A DNA stretch of 64,000 nucleotides from Candidatus Babeliales bacterium. Its GTDB lineage: Bacteria > Babelota > Babeliae > Babelales > JBFXEV01. This document shows positions 15,001-27,000 of the stretch, piece after piece (the first letter of the stretch is position 1; the number at the start of each line of letters is the position of its first letter). A program made the position numbers. The DNA lies in the NCBI GenBank assembly GCA_050179755.1, contig JBFXEV010000001.1:777994-841993 (forward strand), given 5' to 3'.

Positions 15001-18000
15001 AAATTATCTCCAGAAGATAGAACACTTATAAATGAGCTTGAGCCTATTAATTGGGTAGATGCTGAGCGTAACGTTGCATTAGTCTATACGCGGCAACCTG
15101 AACAAAAAAGAGGAATAACCTGGTTTATTAAAAGAGATTTGAATATTCGGCCACAACACTTTAAAGCTGATGACCAGCACGCGTTATACAGTATGTCATT
15201 TAGCCCAGATGGTTACTTTTTGGCAACAGTTTCTGATCTTGGCCGCGTGCGTGTATGGGATGTAAGAAATCTTCTCTATGGAGAGCAAGAAGTGTTAGAG
15301 CCTATGCCACCTTTATTTGATCATGAGTTTGGAGGGCGAACGCCAGTGGCGGTAGTATTAAGCCAAAATGCCAAAAGGCTTGCGATAGCACCGATCCAAA
15401 ATGAAATACACGTATATGATGTGCAAGAAGGCAAACTTATTGCGCGTGCTATGACAGATTCATTTGATACAGGGTATGTGGGCCTTGGTGCGCATGCACT
15501 AGCATTAAGTGCCGATGGCAAATATGTTGCTTTTACTGGCGAGGGTTACTACCATTTGTTTGATATTGATGAACAAGCATCTGTTTTATATTTTGACCGA
15601 GGGCATATAAGCCCTACGCAAGTATTTAGCCCCGGCCAGTCATTTAAGGGGGATGGTGGTTTTGTAGCGTGTGGATTAGAGAAAGAGCATCCATTAGTCG
15701 TTTACGGTATGCGATCGCGTGGTAATTTAAACGTGAAATTTCCATTTAAAAATGAGTTTGATGCACCTTCAGTGTTTAGCGGTGATGGCACGTACTTTGT
15801 GTCGCGAGGCCTTGAAAATTATAACATATGGCAATTGCCAGTGAACTATTTAAAAGGAAATCTAACATGGCAACAATTGCGGGACGTGCTTGCGCGCGCT
15901 TGCTTACAAGTTATGCCGGCAATGCCGGCACATGGTGCGCATGTTGAGCAAGGGAGGAACTAATGAAAAAGAGTTTATACATGGTGCTTGCAGCTTTGAT
16001 CGTGGTGAAAACTGCATATGCAGCGCAGCCTACACGCATTCAAGTGCATACGCAAGAAGAAATTGATAAGTACGTGCAAGCAAATCCAGTGGTGTTTTTA
16101 TTAGTTTCTGCAAAATGGTGCCCACATTGCAGAGCGTTGCAACCAGTGGTTGATAAACTATCACAAGAATTAAAAAATATATTGTTTCTGGATATTGATT
16201 CAGAAAATAAGTCACTTGCACGTAAATATGCACCACAGGTATTTCCAACGATGCAGATTTATAAAAATGGGGAAGTGACCGAGACTATTGAAGGAACGCG
16301 ATCTCACGATCAATTAAGAGATTTAATGAAGTAAAAGTTGTAAAACATAAAAAGGAGATAGTATGAAAAAGTTTATTTTGGCAGTAATAGTAGTTTTAGG
16401 TGCGCAGTCAAACATGCAAGCTGCATATAGTGAAGTTTCTTCAGCAGCAGATTTGAATTCTGCATTGCGCGGTGATAAATCTATTGTAATGTTTGGTTCT
16501 AACTCATGCCCACATTGCAGGCAAATGAAACCTCTCTTTACGCAAGCTGCACAGGGCAGCACTGCAACATTTATTTTTGTAGATACCAATAGATTATCAT
16601 CTGTTGCTGATCAATACGGTATTCGTGGCATACCCACTTTTAAATTATTTAAAAATGGCAGTGCTGTGGGTTCTCGCACAGGCAGCATGAGCAAAGCTGA
16701 ATTGACAAGTTTTGTAAATCAGTAAACGGAATAGCATGAAAAAATTTGTAATAATTGCACTCATTACCGTAGCAATATTTGGCCAACCAGCGCAAGCTGC
16801 AGGGGTTATGGAACCTAAAACAATGCAAGAATTTAGATCGCAAGTGGGTTTTGGCAAGGTAGCAATATTTTTGGGTACCATGGGCTGCCGACATTGCCGT
16901 GCTTTCTTGCCAAAATTTAGAGAGGCAGCTGCAGCAAATAATAATACAAAGTTTATTTTTGTAGAACTTGCAAGCCCACAGCTATCTGATTTATCTCATG
17001 AATATCGCACGCAAAGTCCAACGCTTGTAGTGCTTAAAAATGGCACTGAAGTAAGGAGAGTGCCAGCGACTGATTTAAATAAACAATCTTTACAAGCAGC
17101 GATTCAGTAATAAATTATAAAGGAATATACTATGAAAAAATTATTATTAATGGCAGCAACATTATTGTTTGTACAAACAGTGGATCTTGTTGCAATGGAA
17201 AAAATAAAGCAATTAGTGGCAGTTAAAGGCAATCGTGCTGACATTAAATCGGTAAAGGAATTTGAAAATATTCTTCGTACTAATGATTCTGTGGTATTGC
17301 TTGTTTCAACGACCTGGTGTGGGCCTTGTAAAAAGGTAAAGCCGATTATTGAAGAGCTTACACGTGACTTGCCAAATGTTATGTTTGTGCATATTGATGG
17401 TGATAATCAAGATCTTTCATCATTAGTTGAAAAATACGCATCGCAAGGTTTTCCAACAATTAAATTTTTCAAAAAAGCACAAGAAGTTCAAGAAGTTATA
17501 GGGGCAGAAACAAAAGAGAAGTTGCGAAGCATAATTCAGCAAAAATTAGCTGGCGGCACGCAAGCTGTTGTAACAAAAAAACCAATCACTGCCGCGCAAC
17601 CAAAACAACAGGTGATAGCAAAACCGCATCCCGTTATAGTCAAGCCTGCGGCAGTTGCTGTTAAACCAAAAGCTCCAACACTGCCTGCAAGTTATGGAAA
17701 AGCGCCAATGTATACATATTCAGAAGATGAATCTTCATCTGGTTATTCATCTGAAGGTGAAAGTTCATCAGGATATTCTTCGAGCGAAGAATAATATATT
17801 TTTTAATAAAAATAGATGAGAAGGGCCGCACATGCGGCCCTTTGTTATAATGTGATTTATTCACCGGCAAGTATAAAGTCAGAAATAGCCCAACCAACAA
17901 GCACCGCTGGAGTTCCTGTGTTACCATCAGGTACGTATGGCAAGATTGAATTATCAGCTACACGTAGACCTTTAGTACCAAACACACGACCATGCGGATC

Positions 18001-24000: not shown

Positions 24001-27000
24001 ATTGCTGCTCACAATCACAATGCATGCTGTGGAGCGTGTTTCCCGTAAAGCATGCAGAATGAATGCGTACCGGAACAATGGTATGTTCTTGCCAATTGCC
24101 ATACAAGAGCACGGGGTGTTCATTACCAAATTGGTCAACAAAGATGCGGCACTCGCACTGCATAGGTTGTTTGCCATTATGCACAGTCAATTGGGCACTG
24201 CTTGCCAGTTGCACATACTGGTCCGGTGCATTATTTTGTGGTTTTGCAATGTCCAGGTTCATGTAAGCAAGCAAATTTTTAATGGTTATAATAGGTATGT
24301 TGTGCTGTTGGCTAAAAATCTGGCATTGAGGATAGCGCATCATAGTACCGTCAGGGTTCATTAATTCTGCAATTACCCCAACGGTATTTAAGCCACTCAG
24401 TGCACATAAGGTTACTGCCGCTTCTGTGTGCCCTTGGCGTGCTTGTAATCCACCATGGTGTGCAATAAGTGGGAATACGTGGCCAGGTTTTCTAAAAGAT
24501 GTTGCATCAACTGAACTATCAGCTAATGCTTGTATGGTGTTATGCCGATCAAGAGCAGAAACGCCAGTAGTGGTAGTAATGTGATCGCATGAAACAGTAA
24601 ATTTTGTGCCGTGATGATCGGTATTATGGATTGTCATTAAGTGTAAGCCAAGTTTTTGGGCGCGTGCGCTGGTCAGCGGCGTGCAGATAATACCGGTGGT
24701 GTGTTGGAGTAAAAAGGTGATTTTTTCTGGGGTGCTGTGCTCGGCTGCAAAAATAAGATCCCCTTCATTCTCTCGGTTTTCATCATCCATTACAATGAGC
24801 ATGCTGCCGTGCGCAAAAGCAGAAATATATTGTTTGATGTGGTCGAGTGATGCCATGTGCTTGCTCCTTTTTTAAATGCTTTATTCCTGTTGTTAGTTTT
24901 ATAAGTTCGCACGGGTTTGTCAATTTTTTATTTAAGGTCTGAAGCAAAATCGTAAGCAGACTGAAGTGGCAGAAGTTGGTTGTGCAGAAACTAAAAGGGC
25001 CGCATTATGCGGCCCTTTGTTACATGGTGATTTATTTTCCTGCACGGATAAAATCGGCAATTGTCCAGCCAATTAATACTGCAGGCGTTGCGGTGTTGCC
25101 GTCTGGTATTACAGGCAAGATAGAAACATCTGCAACGCGTAGACCTTTTACGCCAAACACGTGGCCATAAGGATCAACAACGCCATTTTCTGGTGACAGA
25201 GCAGCTTTTGTTGTTGAGCAATAATGGTGCGCTTGAGAAGCATTTGCTTTAATGAAGGCAATAAGAGCGTCTCGATCCATCATTACATCTTTGGTAGGAG
25301 CTATGAATGTCCATGTACCTTTAGGAGATGGATTTGCTTCAAAATAGTTTTCTAAGTCTAAAGCAAAGTTTTGATACGCGTCCGCCAACTTATCTATATC
25401 TTCAGGATTACTCAACAAGTTTGCGTCAGCAAGAGGAATTTTGAGTGGATCATCATTTTGGATTGCAACTGAGCCAACACTTTTTACACGCATTAATCCT
25501 GCACCAAAGAACAAAAGTTCGTCACTCAGTGGTGTAGAAATCCATTGAATATCACGCAACGTATTATTTGGATCTGCAGGTGGTGTTACGGCAGGTAACA
25601 TAGCACCAGGTCCCCATACTGCCCATGGTTCCGCTGGTGGAATTATTTCTGTGCCTGGAGGTATTTGAATTAAACTACCGATGTAGGTATGATTTACTAG
25701 TTCGCCCACATGAGGATTATCTACACGCACTGGCACGCCAGCTGCATTAAGAATGTCTTTTGGTCCAATGCCATTACGTTGTAAGAATTGTGCACTTTGG
25801 AAACCAGCACACACAATAACTTCTTTACGTGCAAATAGAGTGTGGCATTTACCATCTTGCGTATAACGAACGCCAATTACTTTATTATTCTTCCAAATGA
25901 GATCAATGGCGGTAGATCTTAAATGCACTCTTAATTTTCTACCATTTACACCAACACCATTTGGAGTCATAACAGTTTCATCTAAGAAAGCATAAGAAGT
26001 TGCTTCGCGTAGAAATGAGCCATTTTCTATACGTTCTTGAGTATCCCATTGCAAGAAAGCGCCGTTAGGTGTTTCTGGATTATTAAAATCAAGAACCGGT
26101 GGCATACCACTCACCACAGTCATTGCATTAAATAAATATTGATCATCTTCCGTTGGATTAAATGGTAATGCTATATTAGTCCACGGCCCGTTAGTGCCTC
26201 GAGCAGGGCTTGTAGGAAAGGGAGCAATGTAGGTCTCTAATTTTTTGTATCGTTTGCGCGTTTTTTCAAGTGACCAATCTGATCCAAGAAGCGCTTCTAT
26301 TTCCGACCAATATGCGTCAGATCCAAGCACGACTTGCAGGCCATTAATAGAGGTTCCGCCACCAAGAAGCCTTCCTGATGACCACGCGTATGATTGGCCA
26401 TCAAGTTGGAATTGTGGAACACCCTCGCCTTGCCAGAAATATTGTGGATAAAAGAATGGGAACAAGAAGAAATATCCTTGTTCTGGAATTATAATTACCG
26501 GGTCTTGGCTGTTATTATCACCTGCTTCAAGACCAATCACTGAAGTTTTTCTATCTTTAGTCAAGCGATTGGCAATCACCGCTCCAGCTCCGCCCATGCC
26601 AATGATAATGTAGTCTGCATCATAATACTTTTTGTTCTTGTGTTTTGGTTTGCAAGGTTTAATTGGTTCCGTGCAGCAAATTCTAATTTGCTCGGCGAGT
26701 AATGTAATAGGAGAGAGTGCTTGCAAGAGAATACTTGCAAGCATTGTTATTGCTAATTTTTTTTTGAAGCATTTATGCATTGTTATCACTTTTAGTTATT
26801 GATTATTAAATTCCTTTGATAACCAGTACCGTGATGTGAAATTAATATTGAAAAGACTGGTGGCTTCTTTTTTTTTGAATCCTCATCCTATTTATACATT
26901 GAGTTATTATTAAATTATATGTCTTAAGATAAACTGATATTAATTTTATTGTCAAGAGACCTATTTTTTTTATGTTTTCTTATCATGTATTAATAATTGC

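Follow-up and report, generated by a model that had tools for sequence, protein, structure and literature searches.

How did a set of riboflavin (rib) genes come to stand between two GMC oxidoreductase genes in a Candidatus Babeliales bacterium, and is there a functional tie between them? In part of its text, a comparative study of the phylum reports no complete cofactor pathway in its seven genomes (PMC4776705). We analyzed a window of 64,000 nucleotides (the whole stretch of DNA under study) from a 96%-complete genome that consists of a single contig of 1,525,295 bases and is labelled G000 among the 261 Babelota/Dependentiae genomes compared. G121, a sister genome of the same genus, was used for locus comparison.

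Organization of the riboflavin locus

Open reading frames and domain profiles placed the island at window positions 17857-26789, where genes for a GMC oxidoreductase, a RibE-RibD fusion, a HAD-IA hydrolase, a nucleotidyltransferase (NT), RibH, RibBA and a second GMC oxidoreductase follow one another. The domain orders given in a preliminary description were confirmed by the open reading frames and Pfam. The features are as follows:

15963..17794, plus strand: four tandem predicted exported thioredoxin-fold genes (Pfam Thioredoxin; signal-like N-termini and motifs from translations), conserved flank with orthologs next to the GMC genes of G121
17857..19635, minus strand: GMC oxidoreductase g749, 592 aa (Pfam GMC_oxred_N and GMC_oxred_C; Sec-type signal)
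19636..20032, no strand: divergent intergenic region, flanked by g749 and the RibE-RibD gene
20033..21739, plus strand: RibE-RibD fusion, 568 aa (Pfam, and NCBIfam over cut-off)
21672..22376, minus strand: HAD-IA (beta-phosphoglucomutase-family) hydrolase, candidate dephosphorylation enzyme (Pfam HAD_2)
22392..23027, minus strand: NT, NadD-like nucleotidyltransferase with a hydrophobic N-terminal signal or anchor (CTP_transf_like, PF01467)
23101..23610, minus strand: lumazine synthase RibH (Pfam DMRL_synthase; TIGR00114)
23570..24856, minus strand: RibBA, bifunctional DHBP synthase/GTP cyclohydrolase II (Pfam DHBP_synthase 261.3 bits, GTP_cyclohydro2 139.6 bits)
24994..25018, minus strand: terminator-like hairpin in the g755/ribBA interval (11 pairs, 7 of them G-C)
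25032..26780, minus strand: GMC oxidoreductase g755, open frame to 26789, likely ATG at 26780 (Pfam GMC domains)
26970..28703, minus strand: penicillin-binding protein (PBP; Pfam), conserved flank, 79% identical in G121

The genes ribBA, ribH, NT and HAD form a one-strand run, in which a 41-nt overlap is followed by gaps of 73 and 15 nt, with HAD in last place. The active sites of the four thioredoxin-fold genes read CPHC, CPHC, CRHC and CGPC in translation. The divergent intergenic region contains a promoter-like site on the minus strand (19820-19791, 11 of 12 matches) and a 19-nt motif (19719-19737), which a repeat search found again, exactly, upstream of g755; these two places are its sole occurrences genome-wide with up to three mismatches allowed. 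No FMN riboswitch was found at E values up to 1. The island is without mobile-element marks: there are no tRNA genes in 8000-34000, no flanking repeats around it besides the two GMC paralogs, and only a small difference in GC content (0.41-0.43 versus 0.39 for the genome).

The enzymes encoded by the locus

In the RibE-RibD fusion, RibE covers residues 1-192 and RibD residues 210-555, with two Lum_binding domains followed by dCMP_cyt_deam_1 (211-310) and RibD_C (357-545) in Pfam. The fusion exceeds the NCBIfam cut-offs for RibD (334.3 versus 156.35) and riboflavin synthase (164.7 versus 155), as do RibH for lumazine synthase (TIGR00114, 109.1 versus 84.6 bits) and the RibB domain of RibBA (232.5 versus 177.45). 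The catalytic columns of the fusion are invariant in an alignment of 22 fused homologs. Judged by its sequences, the gene set for riboflavin synthesis (RibBA, RibH and the RibE-RibD fusion) is intact, and riboflavin would be the output of the locus. No signal peptides were found on RibED, HAD, RibH or RibBA.

The HAD-IA hydrolase may carry out the dephosphorylation in the pathway. Earlier counted as island cargo, it proved to be a resident core gene of the phylum, with orthologs in 195 of the 261 genomes. Its match to an NCBIfam subfamily lies below the cut-off (117.2 versus 153.35), and additional HAD copies occur within the rib operons of genomes G233 and G184.

The genome has no PF01467 gene besides NT. 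NadD and NMNAT, whose superfamily also includes RibL, the FMN adenylyltransferase of archaea, share with NT the motifs (H/T)xxH and ISSxxR, the NadD fold and PF01467 membership; among known structures, those of NadD come closest to the predicted model of NT (TM 0.62-0.68). In fold and sequence NT looks like the NaMN/NMN adenylyltransferases. It differs from NadD in scoring below the NCBIfam equivalog cut-off (52.9 versus 112.45), in its N-terminal signal or anchor segment, kept in 8 of 8 close homologs, and in its position within a rib operon. Neither NadE nor an NAD kinase was found as a partner for it. In G121, too, NT adjoins GMC genes, and in G198 a distantly related homolog does so. Neither rib nor GMC genes flank its wider relatives from other intracellular bacteria.

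The locus had been proposed to provide a private flavin supply. A private FAD supply requires a riboflavin kinase and an FMN adenylyltransferase, and the known families of either are absent: the reported lack of Flavokinase and FAD_syn was confirmed in this genome and extends to the CTP-dependent riboflavin kinase and the PAPS_reduct-type FMN adenylyltransferase. Across the phylum, Flavokinase matched one of 261 genomes (21.2 bits), and FAD_syn exceeded its cut-off in three of 261, none of them among the eight rib-positive genomes. For the adenylylation step, the genome offers no candidate other than NT. Flavins can be obtained from the host, as indicated by G121, which has zero rib genes and keeps three GMC matches and 13 Pyr_redox_2 matches, the latter the same number as in G000.

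Probable acquisition of the rib genes

DHBP_synthase occurs in 8 of the 261 genomes and Lum_binding in 7 (7/260 and 6/260 besides this one), and GMC_oxred_C in 31 of the 260 others, counts equal to or slightly higher than those reported before. The reported lack of rib families in a related genome was borne out in G121 for DHBP_synthase and Lum_binding, and no match to the fusion was found there; its syntenic locus holds PBP, HAD, GMC, GMC, four Trx genes and WD40, and the rib genes are absent. The RibD tree placed the window fusion within a 73-row clade (71 rows fused, support 98) that includes Balamuthia, Diplonema, five EukProt rows and Orpheovirus. Within it, a 7-row subclade (support 99) unites the window fusion, G198, whose fused gene is 55% identical to it, and five metagenomic proteins. 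RibD of G233, G184, G252 and G194 was placed with unfused bacterial rows, and a single clade of six Dependentiae RibD rows, a group named after the first tree, was rejected (p-AU 1.2e-5). The patchy distribution in the phylum, the absence between the same flanks in G121 and the protist/giant-virus fused type of RibD support the earlier proposal of acquisition, and from these sequence comparisons the rib genes look horizontally transferred.

GMC oxidoreductases and their predicted export

The genome has eight GMC open frames, including four in tandem at contig 605-616 kb (737-908 aa). The hydrophobic N-termini attributed to all of them were confirmed: 8 of 8 begin with a K/R-rich stretch, followed by a hydrophobic segment and then an A-x-A-like site, a predicted Sec-type signal. 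For g755, the start had been placed at 26744; the ATG at 26780 is most likely the start, because it yields a normal signal peptide and the other does not. The Lys-rich CC-x-K-P...C tag was likewise found in the four proteins said to share it (g749, g755, g582 and g583; CC-T-K-P...C-K-P-K in g749), with looser Cys tags in g585, g863 and g584 and none in g1314. The gene g755 is a direct-repeat paralog of g749 (62% amino acid and 71-81% DNA identity, 7148 nt apart), and Bacillota GMCs are 38-40% identical to both. G749 has a GxGxxG motif and a catalytic His, with G62, G64, G67 and H529 unchanged in all nine Dependentiae GMCs of an alignment. No TatC was found in the genome; together with export signals on 8 of 8 GMCs, this suggests that the GMCs are loaded with FAD outside the cytoplasm. 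About 44-46% of the proteins in such genomes have signal-like N-termini, according to part of a published account (PMC6561590) and our own count, so the GMC signals are less special than they look.

Comparison with known systems

The bacterial rib operon has the order ribD-ribE-ribBA-ribH, as in Bacillus subtilis. The present locus has the four enzyme activities and the RibBA fusion in common with it, whereas RibE is fused ahead of RibD and divergently transcribed, FMN riboswitch and ribF are lacking, NadD-like and HAD genes lie within the run, and GMC genes bracket it. Of 80 metagenomic loci retrieved by means of the fusion alignment, 49 have RibBA beside the RibD match and 44 have RibH, the usual order being RibD, RibBA, RibH.

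The fused RibE-RibD proteins of protists and giant viruses have the same domain order, align over the full length at 33-42% identity and belong to the same RibD clade, but here the gene lies in a bacterial chromosome. One example is Orpheovirus ORPV_596, described in part of the source text (PMC5786535). In viral records L076 and L078, RibBA and RibH adjoin the fused gene, and a search of three partial viral records yielded no GMC. Orpheovirus is credited with rib genes and three GMC genes in parts of two reports (PMC5786535, PMC12724268).

The suggested likeness to mimiviral GMCs held, weakly, for the tag and failed for the cores. Mimivirus GMCs (R135/L894, qu_946/qu_143) are proteins of the fibrils and the genomic fibre whose N-terminal domain of 50 aa is rich in cysteine, as part of one report describes (PMC9512402). 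In both systems a Cys/Pro/Lys-rich stretch stands right before the FAD-binding beta-alpha-beta motif of a GMC fold, and the Cys tag gives a weak alignment with residues 38-76 of mimiviral chain 7yx3_A (E 0.0011). The cores are distant: the mimiviral chain ranks 22 among solved structures (84 bits, the best reaching 129 bits), and identity to the GMC encoded on a giant-virus record of 1,259,197 bases is 25%, so that g749 and g755 stand closer to the Bacillota GMCs. The bacterial GMCs, moreover, have Sec signals. Both Mimivirus and this bacterium are parasites of amoebae or other protists.

Post-export FAD loading of a Sec-exported periplasmic flavoprotein is known from Shewanella FccA with the FAD exporter Bfe. 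Flavoenzyme export without Tat and a need for cofactor outside the cytoplasm recur here; by contrast, no exporter was identified, and an intracellular cell may receive flavins and ATP from its host in the periplasm.

Linkage of rib and GMC genes and its possible function

A GMC gene lies within 14 kb of rib genes in six of the eight rib-positive genomes (G000, G184, G194, where the copy is broken, G198, G233 and G252); in the other two, the rib genes are on short contigs. GMC_oxred_C occurs in 7/8 rib-positive and 25/253 rib-negative genomes, although related genomes are not independent. The rib genes have two origins and the rib-adjacent GMCs span three lineages. Such recurrent adjacency supports a functional tie between rib and exported GMC genes, and the linkage is real and partly new.

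We consider it somewhat under an even chance (roughly 45%) that this is a riboflavin locus paired with exported GMCs to meet flavin demand. RibBA, RibH and RibE-RibD would make riboflavin in the bacterial cytoplasm from GTP and ribulose 5-phosphate, the dephosphorylation probably being carried out by the resident HAD-IA phosphatase. The rib genes, once transferred, would have come to lie among genes for Cys-tagged GMCs exported by Sec, and flavin demand would be what selected for the pairing. In this organism, which lacks Tat, the GMCs and other exported FAD enzymes would receive their FAD after export and draw on a flavin pool that the additional riboflavin enlarges; the conversion to FAD would fall either to the riboflavin kinase and FAD synthase of the host or to enzymes not recognised as such. 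Counting against this reading are the two missing steps to FAD, the GMCs and flavoproteins that G121 keeps without rib genes, the likeness of NT to NadD, the phylum-wide presence of HAD, the lack of mobile-element marks and of an FMN riboswitch, the small GC difference, and the commonness of signal-like N-termini. Of the original proposal that the flavin genes serve the exported GMCs, the recurrent adjacency and export signals speak for the core, and the "private" FAD supply is not supported.

The two gene sets could also be co-located without shared function, as accessory cargo in a variable PBP/Trx stretch, with riboflavin topping up the general flavin economy of parasite or host and the GMCs unrelated to it. 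The locus is indeed mosaic, as G000 and G121 hold non-orthologous GMCs within the same flanks, and beside its rib cluster G184 carries a duplicated segment that contains a fragment of RibD; GMCs are present in 25 of the rib-negative genomes, and no riboflavin kinase or FAD synthetase joins the two sets. Chance cargo would, however, have to account for adjacency that recurs with rib genes of two independent origins and with GMCs of three lineages, for the single GMC gene of the 1.7-Mb genome G233 lying ~5 kb from its rib genes, and for the absence of any GMC match in the flanks of the control loci (0/80 metagenomic rib loci). We regard it as unlikely.

Much less probable is that the GMCs act on riboflavin or a pathway intermediate, for instance by oxidizing the free 5'-hydroxyl of the ribityl chain, and that the cluster makes a modified exported flavin or redox shuttle. 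With no kinase encoded this hydroxyl stays free, the nearest solved GMCs oxidize primary alcohols or vitamins (they include alcohol, aryl-alcohol and HMF oxidases, pyridoxine 4-oxidase and a chloramphenicol-oxidizing enzyme), and a GMC is as constant a rib-cluster neighbour as HAD. Against this, riboflavin is made in the cytoplasm and the GMCs carry export signals, adjacent GMCs are non-orthologous between genomes, and most GMC genes stand apart from rib genes (6/8 here, 3/3 in G121); we know of no modified exported flavin produced by such clusters. Some insect symbionts supply a vitamin to their host, and riboflavin might similarly be exported for the protist host, or a prey-deprived one, with the GMC link secondary. 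The pathway is complete to riboflavin and no further, and giant-virus records have the same fused-type set of RibED, RibBA and RibH, effective only through the host (PMC5786535, in part). Yet the amoebozoan Balamuthia has its own rib genes among the matches, Acanthamoeba is named as having them in part of the same source (PMC5786535), the trait is rare (8/261 genomes), and GMC adjacency is left without a reason. We regard host supply as equally improbable.

Pairing with exported GMCs to meet flavin demand is the reading we prefer, and this demand would be the purpose of the linkage. The locus appears to give a complete riboflavin pathway to a protist parasite whose phylum is said to make no cofactors.

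Gene content and organization of the riboflavin locus

Analysis of open frames, Pfam domains and NCBIfam cut-offs bore out the gene content and order that the preliminary description had given for the riboflavin (rib) island, and the gene content of the locus is certain. The one change concerns g755, one of the two GMC oxidoreductase genes that bracket the rib genes: the gene stands, and its more likely start is the ATG at 26780.

Features of the locus and its flank (window coordinates, strand, identity)
15963-17794: four tandem thioredoxin-fold genes, each with a signal peptide
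17857-19635, minus: GMC oxidoreductase g749, Pfam GMC_oxred_N and GMC_oxred_C over cut-off
20033-21739, plus: RibE-RibD fusion of 568 aa, TIGR00326 and NF006767 over cut-off
21672-22376, minus: HAD-IA hydrolase (HAD), within the rib run
22392-23027, minus: NadD-like nucleotidyltransferase (NT), PF01467 member
23101-23610, minus: RibH (lumazine synthase), TIGR00114 109.1 against a cut-off of 84.6
23570-24856, minus: RibBA, Pfam GTP cyclohydrolase II 139.6 bits and DHBP synthase 261.3 bits
24994-25018: strong hairpin between g755 and ribBA
25032-26780, minus: GMC oxidoreductase g755, with ATG at 26780 as the better start

All rib enzymes of the locus passed a curated NCBIfam cut-off, including both halves of the fusion (RibD, TIGR00326, 334.3 against 156.35; riboflavin synthase, NF006767, 164.7 against 155) and both domains of RibBA (RibB, TIGR00506, 232.5 against 177.45; RibA subfamily, 175 against 148). 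The genes ribBA, ribH, NT and HAD are tightly packed, with a 41-nt overlap followed by gaps of 73 and 15 nt. No FMN riboswitch (RFN) was matched at E up to 1 in window 15000-30000; control by this riboswitch is common in bacteria but does not define rib gene sets. The genes g749 and g755 are direct repeats 7148 nt apart, the duplicates being 71-81% identical, and an exact 19-nt motif (19719-19737 and 26853-26871) precedes each of the two GMC starts by 60-100 nt, with no further copy in the genome at up to 3 mismatches. A weaker 29-nt look-alike of this motif (69%) is found directly upstream of NT, at 23052-23080.

Origin of the rib genes

Among the 261 species genomes of Dependentiae (TM6, Babelota), DHBP synthase was found in 8 and Lum_binding in 7. 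The sister genome of the same genus (G121) showed no match for DHBP synthase, Lum_binding or the fusion and keeps the same flanks, namely a penicillin-binding protein (PBP, 79% identical), the HAD (70%), two GMCs, four thioredoxins and a WD40 protein, in agreement with the absence of rib families noted earlier. A tree of the RibD part (124 rows, 73 of them fused) revealed that the fused architecture is widespread, and placed the fusion studied here in a 7-row clade (support 99) with that of G198 and five metagenomic proteins. The fused group around this clade also includes Balamuthia, Diplonema, five EukProt rows, Orpheovirus and PRP83800.1, which we take to be an amoebozoan protein, and the unfused RibD proteins of G233, G184, G252 and G194 have their place in the tree's bacterial half. 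Forcing the six Dependentiae RibD rows, a group chosen after the first tree, into one group was 154.7 log-likelihood units worse (p-AU 1.2e-5). In two viral records RibBA and RibH adjoin the fused gene, and such rib genes are described in the Orpheovirus paper (PMC5786535). The rib, NT and GMC genes have a GC content of 0.41-0.43, above the 0.39 of the whole genome and the 0.38-0.39 of HAD, PBP and the thioredoxins, which gives slight support to acquisition.

Because of this rarity, the absence from the sister genome, the tree, the viral gene sets and the GC content, acquisition of the rib genes, as proposed in the preliminary description, is well supported. At the locus neither a tRNA nor mobile-element marks were seen, and the only repeats on its flanks were the GMC paralogs. 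The acquired part does not extend to HAD, which had been counted in the island: its orthologs occur in 195 of the 261 genomes at 35-52% identity, and it is therefore a resident core gene. On account of the same distribution, the idea that the HAD of the sister genome is left over from a rib cluster since lost was rejected. Rather than a single clean insertion, the locus is a mosaic. That the fused type is common to protists, giant viruses and these bacteria points, as far as sequence comparison goes, to gene traffic inside amoebae.

Recurrent linkage of rib and GMC genes

The rib loci of the remaining rib-positive genomes, those with DHBP synthase, were retrieved and their neighbours read. GMC genes lie within a few kb of the rib genes in G198 (on both sides), G233 (its sole GMC) and G252, and all three GMCs of G184 are located at most 14 kb downstream. 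A broken GMC copy near the rib genes of G194 (L022, 13008-14517) survives as two frames, of 228 and 134 aa, and the linkage appears to be in decay in this lineage. The rib contigs of G112 and G207, at 7.7 and 2.5 kb, are too short for a judgement; in G112 a different contig begins with a GMC, and G207 has no GMC match. The 2.5-kb contig of G207 (L018, G207:C110:1-2512) carries RibE, a stand-alone RibB, RibH and a GTP cyclohydrolase III of archaeal type, owing to which the contig itself looks archaeal; it represents either a further, third type of rib cluster within the phylum or a contig that strayed into the bin.

The clusters are of three types, found in the genome under study and G198, in G233 and G184, and in G252 and G194. 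Chance adjacency was estimated roughly at a few per cent per cluster type, from 1-5 GMC loci per 1.4-1.7 Mb, related genomes not being independent. In a quick tree the adjacent GMCs fall in three lineages: the copies of G233, G252, G198 and G121 form one clade (support 100), g749 and g755 group with Bacillota GMCs, and the G184 copy groups with g582 and g583, two further GMCs of the genome under study. A metagenome scan with the fusion alignment, used only as a control, returned mostly ordinary bacterial rib operons, and none of the 80 loci carried GMC, NT or HAD in its flanks. These results showed that the link between rib genes and genes for exported GMC flavoenzymes is genuine and of more than one origin, and the recurrent adjacency, our main new result, supports a functional tie between the two. 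No paper on this locus turned up in full-text searches that combined the names of the phylum with riboflavin, flavin or GMC, and the linkage is apparently undescribed in print.

GMC oxidoreductases, export signals and cysteine tags

The genome holds eight GMC open frames. Residues G62, G64, G67, E86 and H529, which cover the GxGxxG FAD motif and the catalytic His, are invariant in all nine aligned sequences. As choline dehydrogenase BetA the GMCs were rejected, since they stay below the equivalog or subfamily cut-offs with 205.5 and 208 bits against 605, and with 173.6 and 192.7 against 732.1. In the translated N-termini of all eight, a stretch rich in Lys/Arg precedes a hydrophobic core and an A-x-A-like site, and four carry CC-x-K-P...C and then a lysine run directly before the FAD motif; the hydrophobic N-termini and these four tags are as first described. 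Of the other four, three show less strict Cys tags and one lacks a tag. Signals were called by a crude hydrophobicity rule, by which RibE-RibD, HAD, RibH and RibBA have no signal-like N-terminus, and NT, the four neighbouring thioredoxins and PBP have one. About 46% of the open frames pass this rule, in agreement with the 44% reported for Chromulinavorax (PMC6561590), so signals are common in this kind of organism. No RR motif was present in the eight GMC N-termini and no TatC (PF00902) match in the genome, and exported flavoenzymes must consequently receive FAD after Sec export.

Of the 8 GMCs, 6 carry a Cys tag, compared with 11 among 608 further frames with a signal-like start. CC tags resembling these come after the signal in at least three more large proteins of the genome (contig 52322, 54384 and 175206) and, in relatives, in a short-chain dehydrogenase (SDR), outer-membrane-like proteins and GMCs; the tag thus marks exported proteins of these bacteria in general, with enrichment on GMCs. 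Outside the window, contig 52322-56378 encodes two tandem proteins of 664-667 aa with a signal and then a CC-(P/K)-x-K...C tag as in the GMCs, and contig 175206-178265 a 1019-aa protein with the same signal and tag. About 10 kb before the window (contig 766495-769659) lie genes for two signal-bearing proteins of 481 and 461 aa, homologs of a Cys-tagged short-chain dehydrogenase that adjoins the rib cluster in G198; an exported NAD(P)-dependent enzyme of this type raises the same question of cofactor supply as the GMCs. An outer-membrane-like protein of 435-584 aa, belonging to no Pfam family, occurs as eight paralogs (window 4484-6022, minus; contig 280-286 kb and 1329-1336 kb), and members of this family lie directly upstream of a GMC gene in G233 (28-nt gap) and G184 (19-nt gap).

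Among the four thioredoxins, three active sites are DsbA-like (CPHC or CRHC), and the fourth protein has CGPC and a Pro/Lys- and Ser/Glu-rich tail. The four genes are kept beside GMC genes in G121, and their products are possible candidates for making the disulfides in the GMC Cys tags. We speculate that a Cys-tagged GMC might be a sulfhydryl oxidase working with them.

A parallel with the GMCs of mimivirus fibrils had been proposed. PMC9512402 describes the mimiviral GMCs as binding FAD and having a 50-aa cysteine-rich N-terminal domain. The tag of g749 is weakly alignable with residues 38-76 of 7yx3_A (E 0.0011, little better than the FAD motif alone). With the N-terminus of a G121 GMC as query, mimiviral chains came only 23rd (7ptv_A, E 0.17) and 44th (7yx3_A, E 1.1). 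The enzyme cores are far apart: identity as a Mimivirus-type fibril GMC (R135/qu_946) was rejected at rank 22 and 84.3 bits among structures, and identity to the GMC of a giant-virus record of 1,259,197 bases is 25%, with separate places in a tree that carries a long-branch warning. Orpheovirus resembles the present genome in having rib genes and GMC genes, three of the latter, in one genome, according to two papers (PMC5786535, PMC12724268). In three partial viral records with the fused gene (31-38% complete, two classed as provirus) neither GMC nor Flavokinase was matched. The likeness to mimiviral GMCs and to Orpheovirus is a resemblance in kind, from which common descent does not follow.

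From riboflavin to FAD

Profile searches of the genome, a single contig that is 96% complete, gave no match to Flavokinase (PF01687), FAD_syn (PF06574), CTP-dependent riboflavin kinase (PF01982) or PAPS_reduct (PF01507), confirming the gap in the last steps that had been flagged at the outset. In the phylum, Flavokinase was matched weakly in 1 of 261 genomes and FAD_syn passed its cut-off in 3, at about 28 bits and in no rib-positive genome; these FAD_syn matches lie in proteins of about 490 aa that also match PF01467. Three families of such length (f17, f18 and f20, for example G167:C58:37070-37435) match PF01467 and marginally FAD_syn in their N-terminal part, and by sequence they may bear on dinucleotide cofactor handling in rib-less Dependentiae. 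The flavin transferase ApbE was not found in this genome or G121. Each of the two has 13 Pyr_redox_2 matches, at least seven of them strong, and in the genome under study at least four of them have no signal. Given that flavoproteins are present and no known kinase or synthetase is, the phylum must import FMN and FAD or use new enzymes; G121 manages without rib genes. A private flavin supply, as first proposed, is not supported by the genes recognised, whose pathway stops at riboflavin. The genome has three TLC-type nucleotide transporters. It has no NAD synthase (NadE), and no NAD kinase C-domain was found in it or in G121, which suggests that NAD and NADP are also host-derived.

NT is the sole PF01467 gene of the genome and keeps the (H/T)xxH and ISSxxR motifs. 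Its structure model (mean pLDDT 79.5) has a NadD-like fold, and the nearest chains are NadD (TM 0.62-0.68) and not cytidylyltransferase-like ones; motifs and fold match NadD, and the score against the NadD equivalog TIGR00482 (52.9) is below the cut-off of 112.45. The only look-alikes in the atlas were clusters of a generic kind, cytidylyltransferase-like or NadD. A search of 5.8 billion proteins yielded just eight close homologs, each with a hydrophobic N-terminus; in G121 the ortholog (53% identical) is placed upstream of a GMC gene at a distance of 178 nt, and G198 has a distant homolog between a GMC gene and ribH. Signals also occur on other Dependentiae nucleotidyltransferases. Remoter relatives of NT, some with a signal and some lacking one, are present in further intracellular bacteria, and at 13 of their loci (Holosporales, Thiotrichales, Coxiellaceae, Chlamydiales, Azosocius and other metagenome-assembled genomes) neither rib nor GMC genes lie beside them; the longer relatives (407 and 777 aa) have no second Pfam domain. 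Possibly NT is an adenylyltransferase that is exported and acts on FMN or NMN; we consider the role with FMN improbable. With RibL-kind FMN adenylyltransferases it shares the superfamily, and its nearest structures are NadD.

HAD phosphatases habitually fill the dephosphorylation step of the riboflavin pathway. In G233 and G184 the rib operon contains an additional HAD copy, and in G252 and G194 a HAD of another type lies beside it. Such positions fit a role of HAD as the phosphatase for 5-amino-6-ribitylamino-uracil 5'-phosphate and are not proof of it. Enzyme lists hold an orphan "riboflavin phosphotransferase" activity, and it is speculation that the HAD, a member of the beta-phosphoglucomutase family, might transfer phosphate to riboflavin.

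Purpose of the locus

The best reading of the locus is that it supplies flavin for exported flavoenzymes, to which we give a probability of about 0.45. A more elaborate proposal, which we consider improbable, is a divided flavin economy: riboflavin would be made by some Dependentiae and, as a parallel case, by certain giant viruses of amoebae, and the host or a shared periplasm would complete the cofactor. Outside the bacterial cytoplasm, FAD would then be put together or taken up to serve a coat of Sec-exported GMCs anchored by their Cys tags; exported NT, drawing on periplasmic host ATP, would convert FMN to FAD or NMN to NAD for exported oxidoreductases; and the four exported CPHC-type thioredoxins would cross-link the Cys tags, as in the N-terminal domain of mimivirus GMCs.

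Dependentiae are described in PMC4776705 as having no cofactor pathway at all, and the complete vitamin pathway found here is an exception to that published picture. The phylum appears to live without a known riboflavin kinase or FAD synthetase, which would mean import of FMN and FAD or a hidden new enzyme. If a flavin supply for exported flavoenzymes is indeed the purpose of the locus, it would explain the presence of rib and GMC genes in Orpheovirus and would offer a handle on the role of the abundant GMC proteins of amoeba parasites.
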